A stretch of 64,000 nt of DNA from the sequence record MK573636. One strand, written 5' to 3'. Positions 22,393 to 47,200 of this stretch are shown piece after piece. The DNA comes from Escherichia phage vB_EcoM_PHB13. The notes under the pieces are model-generated. The model searched no databases. It was given only the letters and a program-made list of their open reading frames with translations, and was not told the DNA's origin. The first letter of the stretch is position 1; the number at the start of each line of letters is the position of its first letter. The position numbers and the translations under genes are program-made.

Positions 22393-22410
22393 GGGGGGCT
22401 TTCGCCCCCC
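22393..22410 (-). other. GNRA-tetraloop hairpin between genes 34 and 35
   Basis: - strand reads GGGGGGC-GAAA-GCCCCCC; no T-run follows. Confidence 0.5.
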
Positions 22411-22417
22411 CCTTTAA

Positions 22418-25400
22418 TTAGTCTTCCCAGATAAAGTCTACGGTACGAGTCAGATTATTGGCGATGATTTTAACATTACCAACTTTGATCCAATCACGAA
22501 CCGTCATAGAGTTCATTAAACCACCTTCTGCAACTACTGCCCCGATTTCCTGAGCTGTAGGCTTATTCTGTTTGGTGTAAATTTCACCCCATGCGGTCCA
22601 TTGACCACCAGTACCGGAACGGATATAATGTTTATGAGTACCATCAGGGGACCAAAGCTGGGTAAGCCCGTCCGCGTCAGTACCCCATTGCATCAGAGTA
22701 CCGTTTTTCTTCTCTGGATAAGTTTCTTTGATGTTCTGGGTAGTAACTCGCATATTCCAGAAACCGATGTTACCGATTGCTGGAGCGGTTGCCGCGCTAG
22801 CTTCATGCTTAACAGAAACAATAGGCGCATTATCCATAGTCAGCTTACCGACCATTGTATCGCCAGCATTCTTAACAAACTGACGGTTAAGAACTTCGTC
22901 AGCGTTTCCTGCGTGTACGATCTGATATTTCTGTCCGGCGATCTCTGTAGTTAACGTTTGATGACCTGCCTTGATGTTAACACTTCCACCGTGCCCGATA
23001 TTCAGCATACCATCTGGGGAACGAGTCATTGCCGGATTAGACTGGTCAACAATGTATAAACCGCCTTGTTTCGCATACAGGTTACGACCTGCAATAAAGT
23101 CTCTATATGCTGTCGCGTCGCCATTGTGTTTCATAGCAAAGGCGTAATGCTCGACGACTCCACCATCATTGATTTTACCGAAAGCGATAGCATCACTATC
23201 AACAACTTGCGCTGTTCCAGTACCACCAACGATAATAGACCATGAGTTTTTCATGCCTTCCGATGCGGTTGTGCCATGCAGAGTAATTCCGGTGTGTCCG
23301 TCAACTCCACGCTCACCCAACACCAGATGACCATTACTCGGATCATCAGTAGAGTTCTTAGTCACAGACAGAGTTTCAAAGGAACCAGATTTTAAGCACT
23401 CTAAATCGCCCTTCACGTTAACGTTTTTATTAAACGTGTAATTGCTCTCTATGGTCTGGTCAATGTCTCTACGCGCCCATTTAGCGGCCTCTACGTTACC
23501 CAATTTCAAACTATTCTGAGCGGTTGCCATCTTAGGTAAGAAATTAGCAAGTGCGTAGTTTAATCCTTTAGGGGTAACAGCAATTCCGTCATGCTGGTAG
23601 TTTCCTAGTTCTTGAGTAGAACCTTGCAGATTATCACCAACAAAACAGTTTTCCTGAGTAGCAACTTTCAAGAATCCACGACGCGCTTCTGTTGCTTTCC
23701 ATGTATCCTCTGTCTGAACAACATATTTGAAGTTCTTCGGAGAAATTGCTACATTAGCCAGTGTACCAGCCACGGTTTCGGCTTGAGTACCAACTCGGAT
23801 AATACCTTCTTTACCTTCGGTGGCTTTTTTGCCTTGTAGCTTTTTAGGCGTGATGATTGTAGTATCATCTTGACCAGCATCCGTAAGCTGAGTAGTAGCA
23901 ACTTTAGCGACACCTTTTGTGTCTTCGGTTGCATCCAGACCGCTGATCATGATACCTTGCCACAAATCACCAGTAAGGTTAAGCCCCTGAGTCGGATCTA
24001 CTTTCAAACGCTGTGCATTCTCAAAGAAGGTTTTAATCTTCAATGGGGTAGAAATGCGAGCATCGTCAAGACCTGCGTCAAACTCCGGTTGAGTTGCAAT
24101 TTCTGCTAAACCATGTAAAGTTTCCGTTGCGCGGCGAGTATGCAGCTTTTTAGGCGTGATGATATGGTTATCACTTTGACCTAAGTTTGTTTCTTCCTGA
24201 GTTGCAATTTCAGCGATACCAGTGCGCGATTCTGTAGCAGTACGTTTCGTTAGCGTGCGAGTCGTGATTAGTAAAGCATCTTGCGGGGTTGATTCTGTAG
24301 CCCCTTGCACTTCCGCGTCAGTTGCCAGATAGCCAACACCACGGGAAGTTTCGGTCGCCTTGACTTCGTTGATGTTTTGTGGCGTAACAATTTTAGCATG
24401 GTCGTTGATGTTATAGATCCCTGTACCAGCTTCGCCACGTCGAGCGGCAGCACTACCGCCAACCTGAACAATTTCAGCAATACCAGCGAGATCTTCGGAA
24501 GCGCGACGTTCTTCTAATTTCTTAGGAGTTATTGCGCGAGTATCGTCTAAACCTTCGTTGGTTTCATGTTGAGTTGCAATTTCCATCACACCACGACGGG
24601 CTTCGGTAGCAACACAATCATTTAACTTTTTAGGCGTAACGATAACATCATCCAGGAAGCTGGAACCAGTATCTTGATGCGTTTCCGCTTGAGTCGCAAT
24701 GCGAGCAATACCGCGTCGAGTTTCGTTGGCGGTTTTATTAGCCAGCATTTTTGGTGTTACCGCAACTTCGTCGCTAGGATTCTCTTCATGATTTTTATTC
24801 GTTTCAGTCTGGGTAGCCAGTGCAATTACACCAACACGATCTTTACGAGTCGGATCTACTCGTTCTACAATCGGGTGAGCATGTGCCACCAACCAGTATT
24901 TCTTACCATCATCAACTTCTGAATAAGAGAACTCCAGATAAGGTACATAATCATTTGCAGCGTTGAAAGACAATTCAGACACTCCCGTCCATGTATCGGT
25001 CCCATTGAATGGGTACTCGCTACGCTTAGGAAACTGAACCATGTTTTTCTGAATAAGGATTTTTGTATCCTCTGTGGCGGTGATAATACGGCAATTCTGG
25101 TTTCCTTGCATATACTGCATAGAAACTTGAATACGATCACCCTGCTCGACATTGGTCGGCAGCGTCAGAGTAACATCACGATCACCAAATACAGCAACAT
25201 AGCTATTAGGTTGCAAGCGAGTGTCATCGATGATCGGTTTAAGACGAACAGACTGATCACCATCCCACAAACGCCATAAGTTTTCCGTCTTGTCAAAGAT
25301 GAATACACCATGACCGCTACGCTTACCGATAATCTCTTTTAGACCGGACGTGCCAATTGATTGTTCTTCTGCGTGCTCATGAACTTTAACCGTAACGTGG

Positions 25401-26158
25401 TTGGTTGCGGTTAATCCGTCAAGGTCTGTAGTCTGGATCATGTCGCCATTGTTGGCAAACTTAGGAAGCACTAAGGTAATATTACCCAACGAACTACGAC
25501 GAAATACCTGATCACCATTCTGCATTTGAATAGCATCAATCGCTGGCTGTGCGTACACACCGCGCGGCTCTGTTCCCGTCTGATAAACATGCCAACGATT
25601 CCGAACAAAGATGAAATAGTTCATTGCATACGGGGTAGTGCAATACCATTTTCGGTTATACACATTACCGTTATGGTAAAACTCATGTCCTGAACTCAAG
25701 AACGATAATTCGTTAACACCACACTTGCCACCGATATCTTTTACTGTTATAGTGTCTCCCTCTGCTGGTTTAGTTGGCATAGAGAAAGTCAAGTTTGCAA
25801 ATTGACCATCTGCTGCGATATAATCACCAGACTTTAAAGGAGTATCACCGGAAGTTGCTGCAATATAATCCCAACGTGGGTCAGTGCGCAGTGCTTGCCA
25901 TTTAGTCGGGTCAAAATCACCTGCTGGCTTTGTGATATCTTCTTTTGCATAATACGGACGGTTTTGATAGATTGTAGTTCCGTATTGATCATAACCGCGA
26001 GTTGTGTCATACTGAGTAATACCATTATGGTAATTGAAAAATTCAACGTTGACCGCATCCGTTGATGTGTTTTTATCTGCGTATGCTACATTGACGACCT
26101 TTTCATTACCAGCGTCAAAGCCAAATGTGGCCTTGAAATGTTGAGAAAAATCTGCCAT
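22418..26158 (-). CDS. 34: long tail fibre proximal subunit gp34 (1246 aa)
   Basis: N-terminus MADFSQHFKATFGFDAGNEKVVNVAYADKN matches T4 gp34; internal ...GIARIATQAET... and ...GIAEIATQ... repeats and C-terminus ...IRDFLRIGNV-like also match. Confidence 0.9.
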   Translation of the reverse strand: MADFSQHFKATFGFDAGNEKVVNVAYADKNTSTDAVNVEFFNYHNGITQYDTTRGYDQYGTTIYQNRPYYAKEDITKPAGDFDPTKWQALRTDPRWDYIAATSGDTPLKSGDYIAADGQFANLTFSMPTKPAEGDTITVKDIGGKCGVNELSFLSSGHEFYHNGNVYNRKWYCTTPYAMNYFIFVRNRWHVYQTGTEPRGVYAQPAIDAIQMQNGDQVFRRSSLGNITLVLPKFANNGDMIQTTDLDGLTATNHVTVKVHEHAEEQSIGTSGLKEIIGKRSGHGVFIFDKTENLWRLWDGDQSVRLKPIIDDTRLQPNSYVAVFGDRDVTLTLPTNVEQGDRIQVSMQYMQGNQNCRIITATEDTKILIQKNMVQFPKRSEYPFNGTDTWTGVSELSFNAANDYVPYLEFSYSEVDDGKKYWLVAHAHPIVERVDPTRKDRVGVIALATQTETNKNHEENPSDEVAVTPKMLANKTANETRRGIARIATQAETHQDTGSSFLDDVIVTPKKLNDCVATEARRGVMEIATQHETNEGLDDTRAITPKKLEERRASEDLAGIAEIVQVGGSAAARRGEAGTGIYNINDHAKIVTPQNINEVKATETSRGVGYLATDAEVQGATESTPQDALLITTRTLTKRTATESRTGIAEIATQEETNLGQSDNHIITPKKLHTRRATETLHGLAEIATQPEFDAGLDDARISTPLKIKTFFENAQRLKVDPTQGLNLTGDLWQGIMISGLDATEDTKGVAKVATTQLTDAGQDDTTIITPKKLQGKKATEGKEGIIRVGTQAETVAGTLANVAISPKNFKYVVQTEDTWKATEARRGFLKVATQENCFVGDNLQGSTQELGNYQHDGIAVTPKGLNYALANFLPKMATAQNSLKLGNVEAAKWARRDIDQTIESNYTFNKNVNVKGDLECLKSGSFETLSVTKNSTDDPSNGHLVLGERGVDGHTGITLHGTTASEGMKNSWSIIVGGTGTAQVVDSDAIAFGKINDGGVVEHYAFAMKHNGDATAYRDFIAGRNLYAKQGGLYIVDQSNPAMTRSPDGMLNIGHGGSVNIKAGHQTLTTEIAGQKYQIVHAGNADEVLNRQFVKNAGDTMVGKLTMDNAPIVSVKHEASAATAPAIGNIGFWNMRVTTQNIKETYPEKKNGTLMQWGTDADGLTQLWSPDGTHKHYIRSGTGGQWTAWGEIYTKQNKPTAQEIGAVVAEGGLMNSMTVRDWIKVGNVKIIANNLTRTVDFIWED

Positions 26159-26209
26159 TATTGGGTCTCCTGTTATAATATGAAATTATTTATTATGTGA
26201 GGTGTTGTT

Positions 26210-26774
26210 GTGGCAAAAACAAAATTTTGGGATATCGAGACACAGAAAGCGATAAAAGGTAGATTTTATCATGTTGATGGAATATTATACCATTTAAAGG
26301 ATTCTGTATCTGCTGGATTCCGAAAAGAAGGGTCCAGATACAAAAAAAGGTGATGTGGTAAGGGTACGTCTCCATAAAGAAGGATATTTATACTTTACAT
26401 TTTATAACAATGGTCATAAACTTAATCTGTTTGTACATAGAGTTGTCTGGTTTTTAGAGTATGGTACTCAGGTTGAACTAATAGATCACATAGACCAAGA
26501 CAAAACTAACAATAGACCGTCAAACATGAGAGAAGCAACAGAACAGCAAAATCAGTTTAACGTCTCAAAGAAAAAGGCTTGCCATAGCAAATATAAAGGT
26601 GTATCATTATCAACAAGCAAGAAAAAGCCGTGGAAGGCGTATATTGTTATCAATCGAAAGAATATACATCTAGGATACTTTGAGACAGAAGTTGAGGCGG
26701 CTAAGGCTTATGACCGTGCAGCACATGAAAGAGTTGGCGAGTATGCTTATTTAAATTTTCCAAAAAGAGGATGA
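26210..26774 (+). pseudogene. HNH-AP2 homing endonuclease-like gene interrupted by a frameshift at an A7 tract
   Basis: Fragment 26210-26353 (...FWDIETQKAIKGRFYHVDGILYHL...) stops just after AAAAAAA (26342-26348); downstream ORF 26355-26774 carries the HNH (FVHRVVW...IDHIDQDKTNN) and AP2 (YKGVS...AYIVINRKNIHLGYFETEVEAAKAYDRAA) motifs; removing one A joins them. Confidence 0.6.
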
Positions 26775-26780
26775 TATATT

Positions 26781-26966
26781 ATGGTTAAAGTTGATTTGTC
26801 AGAAGGTGCAAAATGGGTAGTTGACAGAATCCCTGATAAGGATTATAATTATTTCCGTGCCGAATTAAACAATGCAATTCTGCGAGTTATGGAAAAGTAC
26901 GGGTATGACCGTGAAGTATCTAACTCGTTTGGTGAATATGTTGTTGTGAGAGTGGAGAGAACTTAA
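26781..26966 (+). CDS. hypothetical protein (61 aa)
   Basis: ORF with AGAGGA RBS upstream. Confidence 0.5.
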   Translation: MVKVDLSEGAKWVVDRIPDKDYNYFRAELNNAILRVMEKYGYDREVSNSFGEYVVVRVERT

Positions 26967-26968
26967 TT

Positions 26969-27916
26969 ATGACGTATAACCCGTTTACAAAAACTACCGC
27001 TACACTTAATGATTTCTTCGATGATCCAGAAGATAAACTGCCGGAAGGTGTGCATTTGATTGATATGTCGCAGCTTATGATTGCTACTATCTCGCATACC
27101 TTTAAACCGGAAGATCCTATTAGTGAAGGTATGATCCGTCATCTTATTCTTGACACCATGCGTTATAATATGACAAAATTCAAAGAGCAATACCCAATTA
27201 CGGTACTTGCCTTTGATTCAAGCAAAGGTTACTGGCGACGTGATATCGCACCTTACTATAAACGCAACCGTAAGGAAAAACGAGACGCAGATCCGCGTGA
27301 TTGGGAGATGATCTTTGCTGCGATCAATAAGATCACCGAAGAGTTTAAAGAGAACATGCCTTATCACGTTATTAAGGTTGACAAAGTTGAAGCAGATGAT
27401 ATAATCGCTGTGTTAACTAAAAAGTTTTCTGTAGAAGGTCGCCAGGTGCTAATCAACTCCGGTGATGGTGACTACACACAGTTGCACAAATACAAAAACG
27501 TGAAACAGTGGGCACCAGTACAGAAAACATGGAAGAAGTGCAAATATGGTAGCCCATACAAAGACCTTATGGTAAAATGTGTTAAGGGTGACGCAAAAGA
27601 CGGTGTAGCTTCTATCAAGTGCCGTAGTGATTTCATTATCTCACGACTGGAAGGGGAACGAGCTAAACCAATTGCAACCAAATGGTTAGAGCAAATTTTC
27701 GATGCCGAAGATCCAAAGTCTTTGATGACAGAGGAAGAAGCACGACGCTTTGACGAAAACCGCGAACTTATTGATTTTGAATTTATTCCTGATAACATCG
27801 AATATGAAATTTTGTTAGCATGGGAGAAATCTAAACCAGCACCACGCGGTAAAATTTATAACTATTTTGTAACAAATGCGTTAGTTAAAATGTTGCAGAA
27901 AATTGGTGAGTTCTAA
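26969..27916 (+). CDS. rnh: RNase H / flap endonuclease
   Basis: GVHLIDMSQLMIATI... and downstream acidic clusters match T4 RNase H (305 aa); sits next to gene 34 as in T4. Confidence 0.85.
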   Translation: MTYNPFTKTTATLNDFFDDPEDKLPEGVHLIDMSQLMIATISHTFKPEDPISEGMIRHLILDTMRYNMTKFKEQYPITVLAFDSSKGYWRRDIAPYYKRNRKEKRDADPRDWEMIFAAINKITEEFKENMPYHVIKVDKVEADDIIAVLTKKFSVEGRQVLINSGDGDYTQLHKYKNVKQWAPVQKTWKKCKYGSPYKDLMVKCVKGDAKDGVASIKCRSDFIISRLEGERAKPIATKWLEQIFDAEDPKSLMTEEEARRFDENRELIDFEFIPDNIEYEILLAWEKSKPAPRGKIYNYFVTNALVKMLQKIGEF

Positions 27917-27926
27917 GGGTTGACAT

Positions 27927-28523
27927 ATGAAAGAACTTGAATTAAAATACTATGCACACTCACAAATTGGCGTCGAAACAATCTGTGATTTGTGGGTAGC
28001 AATGTATGACGGGTACAATCTAGTAGATCGTGCTAACACTCTAAAACACGAATTTTATTATGATACCGAAGATCATGCACTGCGTCGAAAAGGAATTTAT
28101 GCTAGACTTGACGTTAATAGATCATTGATCATGGTCAAAATAGGTGATAGTGAATCTGGACTCTTCAACCGAGAAGAAATTACTTTTTCAACAACGGATG
28201 ATTTCTATCACTATGTTGATAGTCTAGGCGTAAACTCCGACCTTATCATTCCTTTACTTCAAGTAATGACATACCGCAAGTCATTGACACTTGACCTTGA
28301 GGGTGCTATAGTGGAAATGTGCAAAGACACTTTCTATTATTGCAAAGTCGGCGAAGTAATGGGAGATGCTCACTATGAACTTGAGTTCGAGTTAAAATCA
28401 GGTGATGAAAAAGCACTTGACATTATCCGAGAAATGATGCTAGAATATGTTGGTGACGATTTAAGTCCTAGCGAAATTTCAAAAGCTGAACGTGGTTTTC
28501 AATTAATGACGAAAGAGGGTTAA
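27927..28523 (+). CDS. CYTH-like (triphosphate tunnel metalloenzyme-like) protein
   Basis: N-terminal ELELKY and C-terminal YELEFELK resemble the E-x-E-x-K signatures of CYTH domains; assignment is tentative. Confidence 0.4.
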   Translation: MKELELKYYAHSQIGVETICDLWVAMYDGYNLVDRANTLKHEFYYDTEDHALRRKGIYARLDVNRSLIMVKIGDSESGLFNREEITFSTTDDFYHYVDSLGVNSDLIIPLLQVMTYRKSLTLDLEGAIVEMCKDTFYYCKVGEVMGDAHYELEFELKSGDEKALDIIREMMLEYVGDDLSPSEISKAERGFQLMTKEG

Positions 28524-28528
28524 ATATT

Positions 28529-28804
28529 ATGACTGAACAGAAAAAAGAAAAAGTAGTATTCGATGAAAATGTACACGGAAATACCCTGGCACAACTGATT
28601 AAAGAAGCCAGCGATCAGAAAACCATTCAAGAAGCATACGGCGATAAGATCAAAGAGATCAAACAGCGTGCTAAAGAAGAATTAGGCGTAGACGGTAAAA
28701 TGTGGGGCATTCTGTTTAAACTGTATCACCAGCAACAGCGCGAAACCTTCGAAGCAGAACGCGATGAAGCGGTAGAACTCTATGATCGGGTGTTCAATGC
28801 TTAA
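28529..28804 (+). CDS. dsbA: double-stranded DNA-binding protein DsbA-like
   Basis: 91-aa basic/acidic protein in the T4 dsbA position between rnh and gene 33. Confidence 0.55.
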   Translation: MTEQKKEKVVFDENVHGNTLAQLIKEASDQKTIQEAYGDKIKEIKQRAKEELGVDGKMWGILFKLYHQQQRETFEAERDEAVELYDRVFNA

Positions 28805-31905: not shown

Positions 31906-32174
31906 TGAAAGTCGGTATTATTCAATTATGGACGGCTACCAGTGAAAACTACGCAGTAGCCGTAGATTATTACGGTTTACAATATCTCTATGATGAAGCG
32001 AGCGCATCATGGCTTCCTGTGCAAGAAAATAGCGATATCTCAAGACCTGCAACTGTATTCGACCGTGGCGTTGTCTTTATCGATATTGACGAGACAGTAG
32101 CAAAACTGCGTAAGAAAGCAATCAACAAGAAAAAGGTGATGTGGGATGAAAGAATATTTGAAACTGTTGCGTGA
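31905..32174 (+). CDS. hypothetical protein (89 aa)
   Basis: ORF from ATG 31905 (MKVGIIQLW); overlaps the td start. Confidence 0.5.
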   Translation: MKVGIIQLWTATSENYAVAVDYYGLQYLYDEASASWLPVQENSDISRPATVFDRGVVFIDIDETVAKLRKKAINKKKVMWDERIFETVA

Positions 32175-33366
32175 TGTTCTTGATAATGGCTGGCCTCGTG
32201 AAGACCGCACGGGGGTAGGTACGCTCTCTAAATTCGGCGCAGAGATGCGAATTGATTTAAGCAAGGGTTTCCCATTACTGACCACTAAAAAGATGGCTAC
32301 AGCCTCTGTAATTGGCGAATTGCTATGGTTTATGGAAGGGTCACTTGACCGCCGTCGCTTACAGGAAATTACACGCGGTAAGTTTGACGAAGAAGCCTTT
32401 GACATTTGGCGCGGTAATTGTCTTGATATGAAAGAAAAGAATCCTTTGCGATTCAATGGTTATAATGTTGGCAATATGTATGGTATGGCATGGCGACGCA
32501 AACCGATTCATCCACACGGTGAGATCAAAATTAAGCGCGTTAAGAGCAAATATACACATACATTTAAACACCCGTGGGTAGAAGACTTTACGCCAACCAA
32601 TGAAACAGAAGACCGTTTATGTGCTATCTGGCGTGGTATGATTTATGAAGAGTTTGATTGTATTCTGGTAGCAGACCACTGGAAGACTCAATCTAATTTT
32701 GTTAATGATGCATATTGCTTGTGGGGATTCCAGGAATGGGTAGATAGTGGTTATTTCGATTATCTGCTTGATAGTGATTATCTGGGTGGCGACATTTTAG
32801 CACCGGATACCACGATGTTTGTTAGTATGGACGTAGACACATCAAGCACTAAAGACGATGAAGAATATGTCTATCGCCCGAAGATTTGGGAAGACCAGTT
32901 ACAAAACGTGATTGAACAAATTAAAAACAATCCAACGGATCGCCGGATCATTATTGACTCATGGAACGTACAAGGAACACATAATGCTGTATTAGGTGTA
33001 TGTCATCCTTTCGTGCAATTCTATGTCAATGAAGGTAAACTGTCTTGTATGTGGTTTCAGCGAAGCGTAGACAGCTTTTTGGGCTTGCCCTTTAACGTCG
33101 CCAGCTATGCGCTGTTAACTCACATCATAGCGAAAATGTGTGATCTTGAGGTAGGAGAACTGATTTTCTCTGGTGGAGATACTCACATTTACAAAAACCA
33201 CTTTAATCAAGTTATGGAACAGTTAAGCCGTGTTCCGTTTGATAAACCAACAATTGAGTTGCCGGAATTTAAATCTTTAGATGAGATATTGACAAAGACT
33301 CCGAAAGACTTTAAAATTCACAACTATCAAAGCCATCCAGCGATCCCCGCTCAAATGGCAGTATAA
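32146..33366 (+). CDS. td: thymidylate synthase with ~125-aa internal insertion (406 aa)
   Basis: N-terminal MKEYLKLLRDVLDNG...DRTGVGT and C-terminal RRIIIDSWNV...VCHPFVQFYV...FQRSVDSFLGLPFNVASYALLTH...GDTHIYKNH...HPAIPAQMAV match T4/E. coli TS; an extra block follows YGMAWR. Confidence 0.85.
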   Translation: MKEYLKLLRDVLDNGWPREDRTGVGTLSKFGAEMRIDLSKGFPLLTTKKMATASVIGELLWFMEGSLDRRRLQEITRGKFDEEAFDIWRGNCLDMKEKNPLRFNGYNVGNMYGMAWRRKPIHPHGEIKIKRVKSKYTHTFKHPWVEDFTPTNETEDRLCAIWRGMIYEEFDCILVADHWKTQSNFVNDAYCLWGFQEWVDSGYFDYLLDSDYLGGDILAPDTTMFVSMDVDTSSTKDDEEYVYRPKIWEDQLQNVIEQIKNNPTDRRIIIDSWNVQGTHNAVLGVCHPFVQFYVNEGKLSCMWFQRSVDSFLGLPFNVASYALLTHIIAKMCDLEVGELIFSGGDTHIYKNHFNQVMEQLSRVPFDKPTIELPEFKSLDEILTKTPKDFKIHNYQSHPAIPAQMAV

Positions 33367-33372
33367 ACAAAG

Positions 33373-33388
33373 GGGGGCGAAAGCCCCC
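33373..33388 (+). other. GNRA-tetraloop hairpin between td and nrdA
   Basis: GGGGGC-GAAA-GCCCCC with no T-run after it. Confidence 0.5.
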
Positions 33389-33436
33389 AATATGGAGGAT
33401 AAAACTTGTTCCTGCTAAAATATGAAGTGAGGTAAT

Positions 33437-35680
33437 ATGATTAAAAATGTTGTTAAGTCTTCCGGTCTGACTGTTCCGTTTGAAAAAGAAAAAGTAATGA
33501 AAATTCTGGAAGCGGCAGCCGAAGGTCATAACGTTGATCCATATGAATTGTTTGATATGGTTGAACCACTTCTGACAGAAGGTATGTCTACCAATGATAT
33601 CCAGAAAGTATTGATTAAGGTCGCCGCAGATAACATTACTGTAGAAACGCCTGATTATCAATATGTAGCAAGTAACCTTGCAATGTTCGCTCTTCGTAAA
33701 TCAGTATACGGTCAATTCCAACCGATTGATTTTTATAGCCATATTGAGCGTAATATTGCAACCGGAAAATATGATCGTGAAATTCTGCAAAAGTATTCCC
33801 GTGAAGAAGTGGAATATCTGGAGAAATTCATCGACCATAAACTTGATTTTAAAATGACCTATGCTGGTGCGATGCAGTTAAAAGAGAAATATCTTGTTCA
33901 GGATCGCAGCACTAAGAAAATCATTGAAACACCGCAATTTGCGTATATGCTGATCGGTATGTGCTTGCATCAAGAAGAGACAGAAAATCGACTTGAACAT
34001 GTGATTGATTTTTATAATGCTGTTGCGAATAAGCAAATCTCTCTGCCTACTCCGATTATGGCAGGTGTGCGTACCCCAACACGCCAATTTAGTTCGTGTG
34101 TGGTGATTGAAAGTGATGACTCATTGCAGGGCATCAACGAAACAGCAAATGCAATCATCAAGTATATTAGCAAGCGTGCTGGTATCGGTATCAACGCTGG
34201 CATGATTCGCGCGGAAGGATCTAAGATCGGGCATGGTGAAGTTCGTCATACTGGCGTTATCCCATTCTGGAAACATTTTCAGACTGCCGTTAAGTCATGC
34301 TCACAAGGCGGTATTCGTGGCGGGGCGGCGACTCTCTATTACCCAATGTGGCATTTAGAGTTTGAAAGTCTTATTGTGTTGAAGAACAATAAGGGGGTGG
34401 AAGATAACCGCATTCGTCATCTTGATTACGGCGTACAGATTAATAACCTGATGGTAGAGCGATTCCTTAAACGGGATTACATTACTCTGTTTAGTCCAGA
34501 TGTTGCAGGTGGCTTGTTGTGGGATCTGTACTTCCGAGATGAGGAAGGTTTCCGCCAGCTTTACGAAAAACTGGAAAAAGATCCGAGTGTTCGTAAAACT
34601 CGTGTTAAAGCCGAAGACCTGTTTTTAGCGGTGGCAATTGAACGTTTTAACACTGGTCGAATCTATCCAGCGTTCACAGACAACATGAACAATCACGGGG
34701 CGTTTATTCGTAATGTAGCACCGATTAAACAATCCAACCTGTGTTGTGAAATTGCTCTGCCGACAAAACCGATGGGTCGTGATGATTCAGAGATCAGTCT
34801 ATGCACTTTGGCAGCATATGTTTTAGGAAACTTTGATATCGAAAATATGGAAGAAGTAGAACGCATTGCTATGGTTATGGTGCGTGCACTTGACAACCTG
34901 TTAGATTATCAGGATTATCCTGTAGAACAAGCTCTGACAGCCAAAAAACGTCGCTCTCTGGGTGTTGGCGTGACTAACTTTGCATCGTATCTCGCGGATA
35001 ATTTCTTCACATATGAAGACGCTAACGAGTTTACGCATAAAACGTTTGAACGCTTGCAATATGCTCTGATTAAGGCTAGTGTGCAACTAGCAAAAGAGAA
35101 GGGTACTTGCGAACTGATGCACGAAACACGTTATGGTCGCGGTGAACTGCCTATCGACTGGTACAAAAAGACAGTAGATGAACTGGTTGATCCGGTGTAT
35201 GAGATGGATTGGGAAGAACTGCGCGAAGACCTGAAAAAATATGGCATTCGTAACAGTACGCTTTCGGCTCTGATGCCTTGTGAGTCGTCTTCTCAGGTAT
35301 CTAACAGCACAAACGGTATTGAACCGCCTCGCGGGATTGTATCGGTTAAAGGATCAAAGGAAGGACAATTTAATCAGGTTATTCCGAACGTAGAGAATAA
35401 TGCTGATGTTATTGACCTGCTTTGGACACTGATCAAGAAAGGTAACAAGCCTTATCTGACACTGGCAGCGATTATGCAGAAGTTTGTAGATCAGGCGATT
35501 AGTTCCAATACATCCTATGATCCAAGCACTTATAAGACTGGTAAAGTCGATATTGCTGATGTGTTAGATGATATGTTGTTCGCTCAACATTACGGTCTGA
35601 AAACCCTGTATTATGCGAACGTTCGCGACGGTGCAGATGGTACGGAAGACGCTAGCGAGTGCTCATCTTGCAAGCTGTAA
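33437..35680 (+). CDS. nrdA: ribonucleotide reductase large subunit
   Basis: 747-aa ORF with N-terminal ATP-cone region and class I RNR features (…NLCCEIALP…, C-terminal CxxC); size matches T4 NrdA (754 aa). Confidence 0.9.
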   Translation: MIKNVVKSSGLTVPFEKEKVMKILEAAAEGHNVDPYELFDMVEPLLTEGMSTNDIQKVLIKVAADNITVETPDYQYVASNLAMFALRKSVYGQFQPIDFYSHIERNIATGKYDREILQKYSREEVEYLEKFIDHKLDFKMTYAGAMQLKEKYLVQDRSTKKIIETPQFAYMLIGMCLHQEETENRLEHVIDFYNAVANKQISLPTPIMAGVRTPTRQFSSCVVIESDDSLQGINETANAIIKYISKRAGIGINAGMIRAEGSKIGHGEVRHTGVIPFWKHFQTAVKSCSQGGIRGGAATLYYPMWHLEFESLIVLKNNKGVEDNRIRHLDYGVQINNLMVERFLKRDYITLFSPDVAGGLLWDLYFRDEEGFRQLYEKLEKDPSVRKTRVKAEDLFLAVAIERFNTGRIYPAFTDNMNNHGAFIRNVAPIKQSNLCCEIALPTKPMGRDDSEISLCTLAAYVLGNFDIENMEEVERIAMVMVRALDNLLDYQDYPVEQALTAKKRRSLGVGVTNFASYLADNFFTYEDANEFTHKTFERLQYALIKASVQLAKEKGTCELMHETRYGRGELPIDWYKKTVDELVDPVYEMDWEELREDLKKYGIRNSTLSALMPCESSSQVSNSTNGIEPPRGIVSVKGSKEGQFNQVIPNVENNADVIDLLWTLIKKGNKPYLTLAAIMQKFVDQAISSNTSYDPSTYKTGKVDIADVLDDMLFAQHYGLKTLYYANVRDGADGTEDASECSSCKL

Positions 35681-35688: not shown

Positions 35689-35717
35689 TTGACGCGGGGA
35701 GAAATCCCCGCTATAAT
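35689..35717 (+). promoter_or_regulatory. early promoter with stem-loop in the spacer (PeSL-like)
   Basis: TTGACG 35689-35694, stem GCGGGGA-GAAA-TCCCCGC in the spacer, TATAAT 35712-35717. Confidence 0.6.
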
Positions 35718-40824: not shown

Positions 40825-40830
40825 TAATAA

Positions 40831-40856: not shown

Positions 40857-40866
40857 TGGGGGTAAT

Positions 40867-41190
40867 ATGTCAAAACTGATATACATTGTTATCATATCTG
40901 TGTTGCTGGGGGTAGGTGGCAATATGTGGTGGGAAAATAAAAAGGAGGTAGATCGACTGAATCAGGAATTTACAGAGTATAAGAAAAAGACAGATGAGAA
41001 GATGAAGATTGTAGACTCACTACAAAAGGAGATGTACGGAATAAGAACTAAGTTTGCAGAAGAACAAAACAAAGCAATGAAAGACGCTACACGAGGCTAT
41101 GTAGTAGCACAAAAACCCAAGTTGGTAGAGAAACAGCTTAATGATTCATTTAAGGAGTTTACCGAAGAATTAAAGGAGGCTACTAAATGA
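40867..41190 (+). CDS. putative i-spanin (107 aa)
   Basis: N-terminal TM helix (LIYIVIISVLLGVGG) then charged coiled-coil region; next to pseT like the T4 i-spanin PseT.3. Confidence 0.5.
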   Translation: MSKLIYIVIISVLLGVGGNMWWENKKEVDRLNQEFTEYKKKTDEKMKIVDSLQKEMYGIRTKFAEEQNKAMKDATRGYVVAQKPKLVEKQLNDSFKEFTEELKEATK

Positions 41191-41306
41191 GCATAGAAAT
41201 ATTGCCTACACAAGAGCAGATAAGCAATTTTAATCTGGTTGATTATCTGTGGATAGGTGCAAGCATTATTATCCTGATGGTGTTTTCAATTTTCGTGATA
41301 CACTGG

Positions 41307-41639
41307 ATGTTTAAGAAAGCACATAAGAATTTTCAGACCGCCATAATCCATGTCTTCGCTGTGCCTATTGTATTTGCTCTTTCTTCGTGTACAATGGACC
41401 ATTATTCACAGGAACCGAAATTACATCCTCCACTACCAGCACCAATAGAAAAAGTTGACATTGACCTGAATGTGGATACAATAGACGGTAAGCCTAGAGT
41501 TTCTATGTCGTGGGAGGACTCCCAAAAATTTAGAGTCTGGTTGGCTGATATTAAGAGATATACACTTGAAAGTAAGTTGATCCTGTGTTATTATCGCAAA
41601 GAACTCAATGAGGAACGGTGTAAACCGAAGGAGAAATAA
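41307..41639 (+). CDS. putative o-spanin lipoprotein
   Basis: From ATG 41307: signal peptide MFKKAHKNFQTAIIHVFAVPIVFALSSC with lipobox LSSC; the ORF track starts earlier at 41187. Confidence 0.45.
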   Translation: MFKKAHKNFQTAIIHVFAVPIVFALSSCTMDHYSQEPKLHPPLPAPIEKVDIDLNVDTIDGKPRVSMSWEDSQKFRVWLADIKRYTLESKLILCYYRKELNEERCKPKEK

Positions 41640-42517
41640 TGCCGAAATGTGAAGTGATTTTAACCGTTGGTTGTTCTGGGTCCGGTAAAACTACATGGGC
41701 TATGGAAACGTGTAAACGGTTTAGTAATTATCGTAATGTGAATCGTGATGATCTTCGTCTTATGTTGTTTGGTGTTGACTCACCTTTGAAATACAAATAT
41801 ACTAAGGAAAAGGAAAAGCTGGTAGAGTCTATTCAGAGAATGATTGCTCGCGAGACTCTATCACGCGGATTAAGTATCATTATCTCTGATACTAACCTGA
41901 AAGAAAAACATCGTGTATTCTACAAAGAACTTGCAAAAGAATTTAACGCGGTGTATACTGAACAAGTGTTCAATGAATCATTTGAGACACTAAAGAAACG
42001 TAATTTCTATCGCGGCGAGAAAGCAATTCCACTTTCTCATTTGCGCAACCAATTTTATCTGATGCAGGAATATATGGGTCAAGAAGTATACAATCCGAAT
42101 ACCATGCTGCCGAAGGCAGTGATCTTTGATATTGATGGAACATTAGCGGATAAGGGCGGTCGTCATCCGTTTGACTGGACAAAGGTCAAAGAAGATAAAC
42201 CACGTCCGCAAGTGATCGAAATGCTTAAACTGTATCGTGATAATGGCTATCGTATCATTACATGCTCAGGGCGTGAGGATGTTTGCGAAGAAGATACTCT
42301 GCAATGGTTGCGTGAACAGGGTATTGAACCGAGTGATCACTTTCAACGTGAAACTAATGATCGTCGTCCTGATCATGAAGTGAAGAAAGAGATTTTCTTC
42401 TCTGAAATTGCACCGCGTTATCATGTTGTGTTGGCAGTAGATGATCGTGATCAAGTGGTTGACATGTACCGCTCAATTGGTGTAGAATGTTTTCAGGTTA
42501 ACTACGGAGACTTTTAA
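41639..42517 (+). CDS. pseT: polynucleotide kinase / 3'-phosphatase
   Basis: Walker A ILTVGCSGSGKTTWA plus HAD motif AVIFDIDGTLA and C-terminus ...IGVECFQVNYGDF match T4 PseT. Confidence 0.9.
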   Translation: MPKCEVILTVGCSGSGKTTWAMETCKRFSNYRNVNRDDLRLMLFGVDSPLKYKYTKEKEKLVESIQRMIARETLSRGLSIIISDTNLKEKHRVFYKELAKEFNAVYTEQVFNESFETLKKRNFYRGEKAIPLSHLRNQFYLMQEYMGQEVYNPNTMLPKAVIFDIDGTLADKGGRHPFDWTKVKEDKPRPQVIEMLKLYRDNGYRIITCSGREDVCEEDTLQWLREQGIEPSDHFQRETNDRRPDHEVKKEIFFSEIAPRYHVVLAVDDRDQVVDMYRSIGVECFQVNYGDF

Positions 42518-42720
42518 TGTTTACCGATAAAATCAAGCAATTAGGCGAAGCACTTGCTAAACGTGGTTTTAGTGTTGATATTGAACCAGCGCCAGTTATG
42601 CCGTTTAGCGATGAACGTCGTAGTTTATATGTCATCATGAGAAATAATCATGGTGTGAATACATTCAATGTAAAACAGTATAGCGACGGATCAGTAGAAT
42701 ACTTTCGCGTATACGGTTAA
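42517..42720 (+). CDS. hypothetical protein (67 aa)
   Basis: ORF overlapping the pseT stop (TAATG). Confidence 0.5.
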   Translation: MFTDKIKQLGEALAKRGFSVDIEPAPVMPFSDERRSLYVIMRNNHGVNTFNVKQYSDGSVEYFRVYG

Positions 42721-42741
42721 TTAATATGTGAGTATTATATT

Positions 42742-43248
42742 ATGTTGTCACAAACTTACATGCAGATCGCCTATCTAATCGCAAAGAACTCTAAATGCGT
42801 TTCGTGGAAGGTAGGCGCACTGATCGAAAAAGACGGGCGAATCATTTCTACTGGATTTAACGGCACTCCAGCAGGGCAAGTAAATTGTATCTGTCATGCA
42901 CATAAAAGCGGTTGGCTGGATGATGACGGCAAAATGATCTCAGAAAAACGACCAGAGCATAGTGCATGGTCACAGAAAAACGAGATCCACGCTGAATTAA
43001 ATGCTATTTTGTTTGCTGCCCGTAGCGGTGTATCGATTGAAGGCGCTAGTATGTGGTGTACTGCTTCACCGTGTCCAGATTGCGCTAAAGCAATTGCAAA
43101 CAGTGGAATTAAACATTTATACTATTGCGACACATATGATCGAAATGGTGGGCGTGATTGGGCTGATATTCTGAATAATGCAGATATTACGATCACGCGT
43201 ATTCCAAAAGCATTATTGACTGATTTGAAGGGTATTGATAATGACTGA
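42742..43248 (+). CDS. cd: dCMP deaminase
   Basis: HAELNAILFAA...C.ASPCPDCAKAI are cytidine/dCMP deaminase zinc motifs; position as in T4. Confidence 0.85.
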   Translation: MLSQTYMQIAYLIAKNSKCVSWKVGALIEKDGRIISTGFNGTPAGQVNCICHAHKSGWLDDDGKMISEKRPEHSAWSQKNEIHAELNAILFAARSGVSIEGASMWCTASPCPDCAKAIANSGIKHLYYCDTYDRNGGRDWADILNNADITITRIPKALLTDLKGIDND

Positions 43249-43561
43249 ACAAGTTGATAATATCGCACTTCGTGAAGCACTAAAGAAAATGTTTTCGGTC
43301 GGTACTCACTCTTTGCAGTTTACTAAGAAAGATGGTACTGTCCGTGAGATGATCGCCACGCGAGATCCGGCACTGATGCCATTTGAAACATACGAAAAAT
43401 GGTTAGTTCCTAATGTTGAAAAACCGCGTAAAGAATCAGAAACATCTTTGCCAGTATATGAAATTGCAGTTGAAGGTTTCCGTAGTTTTGGGCTTGATAG
43501 TCTGATTAATGTAGACGGGCTGACTCCAGCGCAGATCGTCGAAATTTACGGTGGCAGTTGA
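43235..43561 (+). CDS. hypothetical protein (108 aa)
   Basis: ORF overlapping the cd stop. Confidence 0.5.
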   Translation: MIMTEQVDNIALREALKKMFSVGTHSLQFTKKDGTVREMIATRDPALMPFETYEKWLVPNVEKPRKESETSLPVYEIAVEGFRSFGLDSLINVDGLTPAQIVEIYGGS

Positions 43562-43563
43562 CA

Positions 43564-44175
43564 ATGGAAACAAAAGATGATAATATCGTATTACCAGCGC
43601 CGGAAGAATGGAGACAAGCTGTAGGTTATCCGTGGTATGAAATCTCTAATTATGGTAGATTGAGATCTATTGACCGAAGTATCGAATTTTATAGAGAAGT
43701 TTCTCCCGGTAATATTAAGCTCGTAAAACAAAAACGTGCTGGTAAAATAATAAAACCAATTTTAGACCGATATGGATATTATTATTCAACATTGTCAAAA
43801 CAAAAAGACAATGGTAAAATCTCAGTTAAAGCCGAAAAGATACATCGACTTGTAGCAAATGCATTTCTAGGAGACGTTACCGGACTTGAGGTTAATCACA
43901 TCAATGGTGTAAAAACCTGCAATTATGTGTGGAATCTAGAAATAGTAACCTTACTAGAAAATATGAGACATTCATTTAGAACTGGACTCAATAACAATGT
44001 CGGTGAAAACCACTCACGGGCAAAACTGACAAATGCGCAAGTCGAAGAAATAATGCGGCTTAAAGGAAAAGTTAAGAAGCAAATTATAGCTGATATGTTT
44101 AATGTTTCTTATTGTTGTATAGCGCAAATACATTCCGGTCTGCGGAGAAATCCAAAGGTCGCGAAATATAAATAA
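43564..44175 (+). CDS. HNH homing endonuclease-like protein with C-terminal HTH
   Basis: YPWYEISNYGRLRS (NUMOD4-like), HRLVANAF...VNHINGVKTCNYVWNLE (HNH) and a C-terminal HTH-like region. Confidence 0.7.
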   Translation: METKDDNIVLPAPEEWRQAVGYPWYEISNYGRLRSIDRSIEFYREVSPGNIKLVKQKRAGKIIKPILDRYGYYYSTLSKQKDNGKISVKAEKIHRLVANAFLGDVTGLEVNHINGVKTCNYVWNLEIVTLLENMRHSFRTGLNNNVGENHSRAKLTNAQVEEIMRLKGKVKKQIIADMFNVSYCCIAQIHSGLRRNPKVAKYK

Positions 44176-44211
44176 TTTACTATTGAGATGAATTGAAGAG
44201 GTAAGAAAATT

Positions 44212-44535
44212 ATGACCGTTAAAACTCCTAAAGCACTTGGTGACTATGTGATCATTGAAGCTAAAGCGGAAAGCGCAGGGACCGAAGTAAAGAGCGATTT
44301 TGGTATTATCATCGAGCAAAAACGAACTATGGGAGAGATTCCTTTAGTCGGTAAGATTATTGATATCGGTGATAACGTTGATAAAGAATTGCTGGGCAAG
44401 ACTGTATTGCTTCCTCATGGGAAACTTAATAAAGTTCCTCATCCAGACGTTATTAACGGCGTTAAGAAGGAAGAAGAGATCGACCTGAAATGGACTGTAA
44501 CGCACAAACAGAATATTGTGGTAGTTTACGGTTAA
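44212..44535 (+). CDS. 31: co-chaperonin gp31 (GroES-like)
   Basis: ...LGDYVIIEAKAESAGTE...GIIIEQKRTMGEIP...NKVPHP matches T4 gp31 in size and motifs. Confidence 0.8.
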   Translation: MTVKTPKALGDYVIIEAKAESAGTEVKSDFGIIIEQKRTMGEIPLVGKIIDIGDNVDKELLGKTVLLPHGKLNKVPHPDVINGVKKEEEIDLKWTVTHKQNIVVVYG

Positions 44536-44546
44536 TGATTTTAAAC

Positions 44547-44574
44547 GGCGGGAAATAATCCCGCCTATATTTTG
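44547..44574 (+). terminator. rho-independent terminator after gene 31
   Basis: Hairpin GGCGGGA-AATAA-TCCCGCC followed by TATATTTTGG. Confidence 0.6.
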
Positions 44575-44617
44575 GCTATATGATTTTGTAAGTTATTGAT
44601 TATTAAGGAATTTTATT

Positions 44618-44782
44618 ATGAAAACTATGAATGTAAACATCCACGAAATCCATACCGAAGTATTCACCGAAGAAGACCAGTTTGGTGTATGGGTAAATCC
44701 TCATTCGATTACTATCGATATTCCTAATGACGATTATGATCCGTTCTCTCTGATTAGCGAGATTAGTTTCAATGACTTCTGA
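44618..44782 (+). CDS. hypothetical protein (54 aa)
   Basis: MKTMNVNIHEIHTEVFTEEDQF...; not in the ORF track. Confidence 0.4.
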   Translation: MKTMNVNIHEIHTEVFTEEDQFGVWVNPHSITIDIPNDDYDPFSLISEISFNDF

Positions 44783-45251
44783 AATTGATATCTATGCGGG
44801 TGGACCTTATCCATCGGGTGAATTGAGTAATTTCAATAAAAGACCATTCCGTCTATTTGGTTGCGATATTAACAGCACAGAAGGATTTTTACAGGGGCTA
44901 AGATTTAAGAACCCTCAGAGACAAAGAGAAATCTTTTTGATGCATGGTGGCAAAGCAAAAAGAACCGGAAGAACTGAAAAGATTGAGAATCACATGTTAT
45001 ATTTTCAGGGTCGCCCGATTCATCGAATGAGTGAGCATTATTACAAACTGGTACATCTGGCATTTGTTACGATGGCACGGAATAACCCAGAATTTTGTAA
45101 AGCATTACTCTCGACCGGAAATAAGAAATTACGTCATAGTATAGGTGGAACTGATCCGTTAAAGACTATATTGACTGAATCGGAATTTTGTAGTATCCTC
45201 AATGATATTCGTGAACGTTTAACAAAACGAGGTGAAAATGTCAATTCTTAA
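44772..45251 (+). CDS. NADAR-like (YbiA/DUF1768-like) protein
   Basis: GELSNFNKRPFRLFGCDINSTEGFLQGLRF resembles the NADAR signature (...SNF...F...G..F.S.EH.YQA.KF); tentative. Confidence 0.45.
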   Translation: MTSEIDIYAGGPYPSGELSNFNKRPFRLFGCDINSTEGFLQGLRFKNPQRQREIFLMHGGKAKRTGRTEKIENHMLYFQGRPIHRMSEHYYKLVHLAFVTMARNNPEFCKALLSTGNKKLRHSIGGTDPLKTILTESEFCSILNDIRERLTKRGENVNS

Positions 45252-46734
45252 TATCATTAATCAGCTTGCAGCAACAGACAAAACATCGCTGAAAGAAAAG
45301 ATCCTGAAAGAATCTGCAAGCAATGAAACGCTGAAAGAATGCTTTTATCTGGCATATTGCAAACAGGTTACGTTTGGCGTAAAGAAATACGATAAACCAT
45401 CGCGTTATTCGTCTGTATTGTCTTTATCCGGTGCATTACAGGTCTTTAAAAATAAACTTGCCACGCGTCAAGTAACTGGTAACGCAGCATTACAGCTAGT
45501 TACCGATACTCTGACTTGCTTGTCAGAAGATGATGCTAAAGTTGCAATGATGGTCCTGAATCGTGATCTGGAATGTGGTTGTTCCGCTACCACTGCAAAC
45601 AAGGTATGGAAGAAACTGATCCCCCAGCAACCGTGTCACCTTGCATCGTCATGTTCTGATAAGACTATTGCTAATATCAAGTATCCGGCGTATGCACAAC
45701 TTAAAAGCGATGGCGCTCGTGGTATGGCTGATATTGACGGGGAAACATTAGCAATCTATACCCGTTCAGGTAATACCTATCAGGGACTTGATGATTTGTT
45801 TGCGGTTTTAGAGCGTCTACGAGGCCGTGGAATTGTTCTAGATGGCGAATTGGTATATATGCCTACCCTTTCGCAAACACCAGCGCAGAACTTCGTTGAG
45901 AGCATTTATGATGGTACTCTGTCATGGATATTTGAAGAAGAGGAAATGCCATTAACGCCAGTAGCGGAAGCAGTAAAAGAATCCGTTGTTGCAGATCGTC
46001 AGACCGGAAATGGTATCCTCAACAAATCACTGAAAGGAACTATTCCAAAAGAAGAAGCCCAATGTATTGTTTACACTGTCTGGGATGTTATCGACCGTGA
46101 TGTGTATTACGGAAACGAGAAAGCAACGAAGCAATATAAAGATCGATTCGAAGAACTAAAACAGATTGTTGAAGAACTTAACGATCCTCGTGTTCAGATA
46201 ATCGAAAACACTGTAGTTAACAATATAGATGAAGCTCGCGAAGTATATCATCGCTATGTAAACATGGGCTTAGAAGGTATTATCCTTAAAAATTTACATG
46301 GTGTATTTGAAGATCGTCGCAGTAAAGATCAGGTTAAATTTAAAGAAGTGATTGACTTCGACGCGGAAATTGTTGATGTATATCCGCATAGTAAAGACCC
46401 TAATAAGGTAGGCGGTTTTACTGTCCGTAGTGCGTGCGGACGAATGATGACTAACACCGGATCGGGATTGACTGACACCACAACCGAAAAAGGTGATGAT
46501 GGTATTGAACGTGTAATTCCGTTCGATCGTCGAAATGAACTCGACCGAGAAATGTTATGGGCTGACCGTCATAACCTGATTGGAAAAGTCATTGAGATGA
46601 CATGCAACGGGTATATCCGCAGCAAATCACGTAAAGAAGATGAACCGGAGTTCTCTTTATTTCTCCCGATCATCAAACGTATTCGCTACGACAAGACCAC
46701 TGCAAATACAGTAAAAGAGGTATTCGATGTGTGA
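45232..46734 (+). CDS. 30: ATP-dependent DNA ligase
   Basis: ...AYAQLKSDGARG (adenylation lysine motif)...VLDGELVY...EGIILKN...KFKEVIDFD... matches T4 gp30 (487 aa). Confidence 0.9.
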   Translation: MKMSILNIINQLAATDKTSLKEKILKESASNETLKECFYLAYCKQVTFGVKKYDKPSRYSSVLSLSGALQVFKNKLATRQVTGNAALQLVTDTLTCLSEDDAKVAMMVLNRDLECGCSATTANKVWKKLIPQQPCHLASSCSDKTIANIKYPAYAQLKSDGARGMADIDGETLAIYTRSGNTYQGLDDLFAVLERLRGRGIVLDGELVYMPTLSQTPAQNFVESIYDGTLSWIFEEEEMPLTPVAEAVKESVVADRQTGNGILNKSLKGTIPKEEAQCIVYTVWDVIDRDVYYGNEKATKQYKDRFEELKQIVEELNDPRVQIIENTVVNNIDEAREVYHRYVNMGLEGIILKNLHGVFEDRRSKDQVKFKEVIDFDAEIVDVYPHSKDPNKVGGFTVRSACGRMMTNTGSGLTDTTTEKGDDGIERVIPFDRRNELDREMLWADRHNLIGKVIEMTCNGYIRSKSRKEDEPEFSLFLPIIKRIRYDKTTANTVKEVFDV

Positions 46735-47200
46735 TAATGAAGGGGCGAAAGCCCCTAAACCTAAAAAATTGTCAAAGAAAGAGCAACGCCAGATCCTGAA
46801 AATGAAATATGGTGGACGTTGTGCCTATTGTGGCGAGGAACTAGGGGATCGCTGGCACGCAGACCACATCAAACCAGTATTGCGACGCTCAAAGGTAGTC
46901 TATGATGAAAATGGACGAATTGCCCGTAATGATGATGGATCGTGGAAGTATAAGGTTGTAGGAATGCATAAACCGGAACATGATATACTTGATAACATGA
47001 ATCCGGCGTGTGTGCAATGCAATCTTTATAAAAGCTGTATGGGCTTAGAATACTGGCGTAAGTTTATACGCGAGAACTTCCAGAAGTACATTCAGCGAAA
47101 TATGGGGTTGCGAGCGGCTAAACGCTTTGGCTTGCTGTCAATTCATGACCAGCCAGTAGAATTTTATTTCGAAAAGTACGAGCGCGAAAATAAGGAGTAA
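46727..47200 (+). CDS. HNH endonuclease-like protein
   Basis: CAYCGEE...WHADHIKP...NMNPACVQCNLYK is an HNH motif; true start may be downstream at MKYGG given the hairpin at 46743. Confidence 0.6.
   Translation: MCDNEGAKAPKPKKLSKKEQRQILKMKYGGRCAYCGEELGDRWHADHIKPVLRRSKVVYDENGRIARNDDGSWKYKVVGMHKPEHDILDNMNPACVQCNLYKSCMGLEYWRKFIRENFQKYIQRNMGLRAAKRFGLLSIHDQPVEFYFEKYERENKE
46743..46756 (+). other. GNRA-tetraloop hairpin just after the ligase stop
   Basis: GGGGC-GAAA-GCCCC with no T-run; lies in the annotated 5' end of the next ORF. Confidence 0.45.

Follow-up and report, generated by a model that had tools for sequence, protein, structure and literature searches.

The stretch of DNA analysed here, called the window throughout, comprises 64,000 nt of Escherichia phage vB_EcoM_PHB13 (sequence record MK573636), an RB49/Phi1-like T4-type coliphage of the genus Krischvirus with 97–99% identity to many deposited genomes, and gene names are taken from the RB49 annotation. 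Three of its gene junctions carry the same type of short RNA hairpin, with a G-rich 5' arm, a GAAA loop and a C-rich 3' arm: hairpin #1 between genes 34 and 35, hairpin #2 between td and nrdA, and hairpin #3 just after the stop codon of the ligase gene (gene 30), within the start of a gene for an HNH endonuclease. An earlier note on this DNA had described these three elements in transcript orientation, and the gene identities it gave agree with the RB49 annotation, with GAAA found on the mRNA-sense strand at each site. The 14-mer GGGGCGAAAGCCCC, which is the core common to all three, occurs three times in the window and was absent from 100 dinucleotide-preserving shuffles. The genome-wide scan that the note had proposed excludes chance frequency, as a complete RB49-type genome of 162,105 bp has exactly three copies, at the same three junctions, against ~0.0002 expected from base composition; the window therefore contains every copy. 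The note's positions for #1 and #2 were exact, but #3 begins two nucleotides before the start it was given (46743), and while #1 and #2 do lie between genes, #3 is not a spacer element but lies inside the HNH open reading frame (ORF).

Stem sequences are not identical across the sites. The portion that #3 has in common with #1 and #2 is only GGGGC/GCCCC, while the G-run of #1, read directly, continues beyond the stem to position 22412. All three hairpins dominate their local minimum-free-energy (MFE) RNA folds, and their free energies (-11.6 to -16.6 kcal/mol) indicate stability equal to or higher than that of the canonical terminators in the window (-9.9 to -14.6 kcal/mol). No Rfam family matched any part of the window at gathering thresholds. 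The core itself is not specific to this phage, and a pattern scan of IMG/VR found GGGGCGAAAGCCCC in at least 120 unrelated contigs, with many copies directly 3' of stop codons and a strong T-run after about one third; GGGGCGAAAGCCCC is a generic hairpin design. One IMG/VR contig (L063) that shares GGGGCGAAAGCCCCTAAAACCTAAAAC raised the idea of hairpin #3 travelling with the HNH gene, but on translation its site proved to be unrelated and intergenic, and the match was set aside as coincidence.

We compared the position of the hairpins with that of the terminators in the window. Each hairpin starts 5–7 nt 3' of the upstream stop codon (gene 34, td and ligase), and the canonical terminators, judged from ORF ends and hairpin coordinates, start 5–12 nt, mostly 5–8 nt, after theirs. 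No such regularity is seen relative to the downstream start codon, which lies 12 nt from #1 and 48 nt from #2 (nrdA ATG at 33437), with #3 inside the ORF. Like the intrinsic terminators of E. coli and T4-type phages, the three elements combine a GC-rich stem of 6–7 bp, a G-rich 5' arm, a C-rich 3' arm and a stable tetraloop with sense orientation, comparable stability and a place a few nucleotides after a stop codon; their perfect stems and 4-nt loops fall within the usual terminator definition (at least 5 GC-rich bp and a loop of 3–8 nt). Unlike such terminators, none has a U-tract on the sense strand. The tails of #1, #2 and #3 (UAUGGGGU, AAUAUGGA and AAACCUAA) hold 3, 2 and 1 U in the first 8 nt, compared with 4–7 for the canonical terminators in the window and 2–3 for the promoter-early stem-loops (PeSLs) of this phage group, and essential downstream genes depend on read-through. 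The earlier note was right that no T-run follows the hairpins, at least on the sense strand. Its view that they are unlikely to be intrinsic terminators holds for the lack of a canonical U-tract, but is worded too strongly considering their terminator geometry and stability, the U-runs found in relatives and the precedent of the U-less PeSLs. In the complete RB49-type genome, 9 of 18 intergenic GC-rich tetraloop hairpins have a GNRA or UNCG loop when read in the sense orientation (GAAA alone accounting for 7) and 2 of 18 when read antisense, with a strand assignment that is crude. Coordinates of the hairpins and of the features around them are collected in Table 1.

Table 1. Hairpins #1–#3 and associated features of the window.
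Feature	Position	Strand	Description
Hairpin #1	22393-22410	-	GGGGGGC-GAAA-GCCCCCC, 7 bp, RNA free energy -16.6 kcal/mol; gene 34/gene 35 junction
Hairpin #2	33373-33388	+	GGGGGC-GAAA-GCCCCC, 6 bp, -13.3 kcal/mol; td/nrdA junction
Hairpin #3	46741-46756	+	AGGGGC-GAAA-GCCCCT, 6 bp, -11.6 kcal/mol; after ligase (gene 30) stop
Gene 34 stop codon	22418-22420	-	TAA; 7 nt upstream of the first paired base of #1 (5 nt in RB49)
td stop codon	33364-33366	+	Hairpin #2 begins 6 nt later
Ligase stop codon	46732-46734	+	Hairpin #3 begins 6 nt later
Gene 35 ribosome-binding region	22378-22389	-	GGGG Shine-Dalgarno-like run 22386-22389; ATG 22378-22380
Canonical intrinsic terminator after gene 35	21208-21230	-	AAGCCGATCC-ATG-TGGTCGGCTT, then TATTTTTATA; closes the 34-35 unit
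Sigma-70-like promoter match	33289-33317	+	TTGACA-17-TAAAAT, 11/12 consensus; inside td 3' end
td-nrdA spacer	33389-33436	+	Orphan GGAGG; 8-codon mini-ORF ATGGAGGATAAAACTTGTTCCTGCTAA; 3' segment ATGAAGTGAGGT
Free-standing HNH endonuclease gene	46727-47200	+	Pfam HNH; PHROG 2118; homologue of RB49ORF212c
24-nt in-frame insertion	46733-46756	+	GATAATGAAGGGGCGAAAGCCCCT; HNH codons 3-10, relative to the nearest outside homologue (protein alignment)
PeSL cassettes	35689-35717, 47959-47988, 49103-49131, 52362-52390, 52607-52635, 54739-54768	+	Box/stem-loop match
Hairpin after gene 36 stop	19523-19543	-	4 nt after the stop; AGCGGGGA-UUAUC-UCCCCGCU, then weak U-run UUUCUAAAUA
Thymidylate synthase (td)	32146-33366	+	406 aa
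~600-nt insert	26200-26775	+	Between the divergent gene 34 and RB49ORF246c homologue

We next examined orthologous junctions, with 10–12 Krischvirus sequences available per junction. As the earlier note had suggested such a comparison, it can be said that all three hairpins recur in every Krischvirus sequence and that the 34/35 stem extends to ten lineages. Hairpin #1 was present in 12/12 Krischvirus sequences, with G-runs of 5–8 and C-runs of 4–6, and in phage Skers its loop is TAAA, which is not of the GNRA type. Conservation of the hairpins within the genus says little, because the flanking DNA is also ~97% conserved. Outside the genus we compared 34/35 junctions from lineages with 89, 86, 80, 72, 69, 64, 61 and 49% gp35 identity and from one further sister contig. 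The GGGGGC/GCCCCC stem is intact in ten lineages ranging from 100% to 49% gp35 identity, and in one of them both arms are lengthened by an extra A-U pair. The loops vary in sequence and in length (GAAA, UAAA, UUU, UAAAU, AAAC, UUUU, GUUU, AAUU, GCGUUA and UUCG; 3–6 nt), so that ten different loops occur among twelve aligned sequences, and the only invariant columns of the alignment are stem bases, with diverged flanks and a mean column identity of 51%. This variation in loop length favours a hairpin over a DNA-binding site of fixed spacing. A short U-run abutting the gene 35 Shine-Dalgarno sequence follows the stem in 6/8 non-Krischvirus lineages but not in L177, L179 or Krischvirus, and the distance from hairpin to gene 35 ATG is 12–26 nt in the other lineages. 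Per-sequence folds were used for these comparisons, since counts of covarying pairs would be uninformative for invariant stems and MAFFT mis-registers the variable loops. An IMG/VR pattern scan for the C-terminus of gp34 (FIWED*) found only three already known relatives.

The lengths of the homopolymers also vary among isolates at #1 (22405-22412) and #2 (33372-33377), from G5 to G8 and from C4 to C6, with the window having the longest (G8); either true slippage or errors in sequencing the homopolymers of the deposited genomes could account for the differences. Separately, in a contig from ENA ERZ27287269 (L175, 1001-1035) the gene caller has lengthened gp35 by 11 codons through hairpin #1 (LKGAKAPYGVIM...), and this spurious extension gives GAKAP, a peptide genuinely encoded by the HNH gene through #3.

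With a gap of 12 nt there is no room for a promoter between #1 and gene 35, where the Makalu_003 record annotates a ribosome-binding site. The - strand has exact late-promoter motifs TATAAATA 5' of genes 34 and 36 only, and the 34-35 unit is closed by the canonical terminator after gene 35, the site at which a 35→36 terminator has been predicted in all six T4-like genomes (PMC1524935). A further hairpin follows the gene 36 stop codon and is predicted by TransTerm to be the 36→37 terminator in RB49; a stem-loop thus stands at every junction from gene 34 to gene 37, and these stem-loops differ by degrees in their quality as terminators. On the other side of gene 34, the window carries a ~600-nt insert that is not in RB49, which has a 75-nt gap there, but is in KFS-EC, where it is unannotated. 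It encodes an HNH-type homing endonuclease, with an ORF (26355-26774) matching PHROG 99 at positions 146-268 of 383. Because its N-terminal part apparently lies in a different frame, 5' of a run of seven A residues near 26340, the gene may carry a frameshift or be a pseudogene.

Likewise, hairpin #2 was found in all 10 Krischvirus sequences recovered, with a T bulge in UPWr_E1 and a 5-bp stem in ECD7. At the same site PspYZU05 has GGAGGC-GAAA-GCCTCC, with the same GAAA loop, followed by UUUUUU, and a PeSL-like stem-loop is found there in one sister lineage; a td/nrdA hairpin is missing from two relatives, of which one is a sister lineage. A metagenome scan with the NrdA N-terminus gave three loci only and no new junction types. 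In RB43, terminators have been predicted both from td to nrdA and after ligase (PMC1524935). A middle (MotA-type) or late promoter in the td-nrdA spacer was considered by eye and rejected, the 48 nt containing no exact TATAAATA and no sigma-70-type match. The sigma-70-like match in the 3' end of td lies upstream of the hairpin, and transcripts from this candidate promoter would carry #2 in their leader. In sister lineages a DUF4326 gene lies between td and nrdA (L155 9694-10008; L156 9684-9989), and the 3' segment of the spacer resembles the end of this gene in L156; from this partial similarity the spacer is probably a deletion scar, or remnant, of a DUF4326 gene. As to td itself, the 266-position Pfam profile is spread across the whole of the predicted thymidylate synthase, which implies a ~140-aa insertion relative to ordinary ThyA/Td. 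In L156 td comprises two ORFs (186 and 94 aa) with ~440 nt between them, which may be an intron.

At the ligase/HNH junction, the HNH ATG overlaps the end of the ligase gene, with its Shine-Dalgarno sequence AAGAGGT inside that gene, and hairpin #3 extends from +15 to +30 of the HNH ORF, where codons 5-10 read E-G-A-K-A-P. The HNH homologues (n = 181) are mostly 125–140 aa long and start at query residue 13. The closest one outside the genus (L148) is 70% identical and is encoded beside a 71%-identical ligase; its junction sequence is TTGTAATGTGTAAACCAAAG, and the protein begins MCKPKKL, from TTGTAATGTGTAAACC. Relative to this homologue, the window has the 24-nt in-frame insertion of Table 1, which brings in a TGA-TAA-TGA triple stop in the ligase frame together with hairpin #3. 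The L155 lineage is also without a ligase/HNH hairpin and has a canonical UUCG terminator after its HNH gene instead. Judged by these alignments, the Krischvirus lineage has gained hairpin #3. Its length is identical in 10/10 Krischvirus sequences, whereas the G and C runs of #1 and #2 vary, and this fits #3 being translated, with the frame kept. The KFS-EC copy has one G-to-T mismatch that changes Ala to Ser. In T4 gene 60, a stop codon is followed by a tetraloop hairpin. Programmed bypassing or recoding by analogy with that gene was considered for #3 and rejected, the HNH frame reading straight through the hairpin.

A closer parallel is given by mobE and segF of T4, which have weak terminators in the 5' coding region that have been proposed to limit expression of the endonucleases; the mobE terminator has a short poly(U) and ~30% of transcripts end there (Edgell, Gibb & Belfort 2010, PMC2988022). 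As at #3, an endonuclease gene follows a core gene directly, with its start overlapping the upstream stop region and a terminator-type hairpin in its first codons. The upstream core gene is ligase for #3 and nrdA for mobE. Termination has been measured for the mobE hairpin, with its short poly(U), whereas #3 has a tail (AAACCUAAAA) without a U-run.

We also compared the hairpins with the PeSLs of RB49 and Phi1. These U-less stem-loops lowered reporter lacZ expression to the same extent as rrnB T1, thus behaving as attenuators or terminators (Arbiol 2010, PMC2839356), and their G(n)-loop-C(n) consensus has been described by Comeau 2014 (PMC4122927). Hairpins #1–#3 belong to the same phage group and have the same style, with arms of G5-8 C and G C4-6 and no U-tract after the stem. 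However, PeSLs are flanked or overlapped by sigma-70-like TTGAC(A) -35 and TATAAT -10 boxes and have AT-rich DNA upstream, and as neither box adjoins #1–#3, we rejected their membership of this class. PeSLs also sit by ORFans and indel breakpoints in hyperplastic regions. Hairpins #1 and #2, by contrast, separate core genes whose order is the same in every genome we compared, and #3, although it borders on the ORFan-rich region downstream of ligase, is placed within an ORF. In the window, true PeSL cassettes are found on the + strand, each with its G-rich hairpin framed by the -35 and -10 boxes (GTTGAC-[stem-loop]-TATAAT). They cluster in the ORFan-rich region downstream of ligase, with one, which has a GAAA loop, 3' of nrdA.

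Extra-stable C(UUCG)G and GNRA tetraloop hairpins were reportedly first noticed in T4 intercistronic regions by Tuerk et al. in 1988. Such hairpins, the subject of a later commentary (PMC4371310), are a structural class and not a functional family. Hairpins #1–#3 resemble them in having C-GAAA-G on a G-C stem, and one sister lineage has C-UUCG-G at 34/35, but most lineages have ordinary loops there, so the special loop is optional.

Taken together, these elements are still best read as acting at the RNA level, in stability, attenuation or translation. Specifically, we favour, with a probability of about 0.55, hairpins #1–#3 acting in the sense RNA as G(n)-loop-C(n) attenuators, as protectors of 3' ends, or as both, to the benefit of the upstream cistron. 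With no U-tract, and no space for a promoter between the hairpin and gene 35, nrdA or the HNH gene, they must let most transcription through. Any message for gp35, NrdA or the HNH protein has to cross one of them, and as no separate promoter serves these genes 3' of the hairpin, the three sites are probably not ends of transcription units. The hairpin would pause RNA polymerase or terminate it weakly, and would block 3'-to-5' exonucleases after a cut in the downstream RNA, so that the message of the upstream cistron would outlast or outnumber that of the downstream one. At 34/35, gp34 being a trimer and gp35 a monomer (PMC5537660), attenuation would fit a 3:1 gp34:gp35 ratio in the tail fibre. 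At ligase/HNH, the hairpin would keep expression of the homing endonuclease low, as has been proposed for T4 mobE and segF.

Several points weigh against this interpretation. E. coli RNA polymerase normally requires a U-tract for intrinsic termination. The published TransTerm list for RB49 (PMC1524935, supplement 6) contains none of the three sites, and a full-text literature search found no Krischvirus transcriptome, RNA-seq or Term-seq papers. T4 and Aeromonas phage 25 have 8–9 nt and no hairpin between genes 34 and 35, so the element is not generally needed for the 3:1 ratio. Formal covariation support is lacking because the stems do not vary. Finally, the natural variants that weaken the structure (the KFS-EC mismatch in #3, the UPWr_E1 bulge in #2 and the Skers loop in #1) indicate that constraint is not absolute.

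The hairpins could instead be decaying relics, former terminators that have lost the U-tract and retain little function, kept only because the genus is young. U-runs in sister lineages where Krischvirus has none would fit such decay, as would the disruptive polymorphisms, the variable lengths of the G and C runs within the genus and the conservation of the flanking DNA there. We nevertheless regard this as unlikely, since the 34/35 stem is intact despite fully diverged flanks and loops, including in the U-run-less L177 and L179, since all three copies are kept in every Krischvirus genome examined, and since #3 is a gain and not a leftover.

Control of translation is possible for #1 and #3, which might modulate or couple initiation at gene 35 and at the HNH gene, respectively. 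A gap of 3 nt separates the end of hairpin #1 from the GGGG run of gene 35, a region that is partly paired by an outer helix of the MFE fold; hairpin #3 lies at the edge of the 30S footprint, and RNA structure is a common means of restraining T4-type homing endonucleases (PMC2988022). As an account of what the hairpins are for, however, this is rather improbable. The downstream geometry differs from site to site, and in other lineages at 34/35, while the distance from the upstream stop codon is constant, and no hairpin sequesters a Shine-Dalgarno sequence or start codon.

The 34/35 loop drifts between lineages, yet all three Krischvirus sites share GAAA and the same closing pairs, and the flank TAATGAA of the insertion at #3 resembles TAATTAAA, which precedes #1. 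A speculative explanation, to which we attach little probability, is a co-evolving cassette of ~22–25 nt (stops, A-rich linker and G4-5C-GAAA-GC4-5) that would have spread by recombination or gene conversion and be kept identical through recognition by a phage or host factor setting the 34:35, td:nrdA and ligase:HNH ratios. Such a factor could be, for example, an RNA-binding protein or nuclease, and the 24-nt insertion at ligase/HNH would be the most recent cassette event. The shared loop could equally reflect the genome-wide preference for GAAA (7/18 intergenic tetraloop hairpins).

Very improbable is a role as antisense terminators, stopping transcripts that run against genes 34, td and nrdA. 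On the antisense strand #1 and #2 do have T-rich tails (CCTTTAATTA and CTTTGTTTAT), and our consensus scan calls terminators there only; these tails are also the reason why the GenBank records of TB34 and Makalu_003 annotate opposite-strand terminators, although such features are automated predictions. No T-run accompanies #3 on the antisense strand, relatives carry their U-runs on the sense side, and GNRA and UNCG loops are enriched in the sense orientation only. Furthermore, there is no exact late-promoter motif TATAAATA on the - strand in 26393-64000 to feed #2 or #3.

Least probable by our estimate is an element acting as DNA, with d(GCGAAAGC) on the non-template strand serving replication priming or recombination, or with the hairpins being PeSL-like recombination linkers: the exact GCGAAAGC core of all three copies is a known DNA mini-hairpin (exact 8-mer or GCGAAGC core) that is extraordinarily stable, is poorly bound by SSB and is found at the origin of phage G4 (Hirao and colleagues; review PMC13037366), the PeSLs of this group are recombination sites (PMC2839356) and #3 arose as a discrete insertion, but the mini-hairpin acts in single-stranded DNA at replication origins, to which #1–#3 have no link, relatives keep the 34/35 stem while the loop becomes TTT, TTTT, AATT, GTTT, TTCG and others, GCGAAAGC is present at roughly chance level, without excess (5 copies in the 162-kb RB49-type genome), and no gene-order breakpoints lie at #1 or #2 in the genomes compared.

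Hairpins #1–#3 can be described as a fairly ordinary regulatory feature of this clade, terminator-style stem-loops without a U-tail and not a new kind of element, and they leave the current understanding of phage gene regulation unchanged. They do show that public records mis-annotate these sites, either as antisense terminators or not at all. For engineering of the tail-fibre genes 34-37 in therapeutic Krischvirus phages, the 34/35 junction is best left intact. If the attenuator and 3'-end protector reading is true, RB49-type phages would tune ratios within operons, of gp34 to gp35, td to nrdA, and ligase to a potentially harmful homing endonuclease, by reusing the standard terminator stem-loop without its U-tail.

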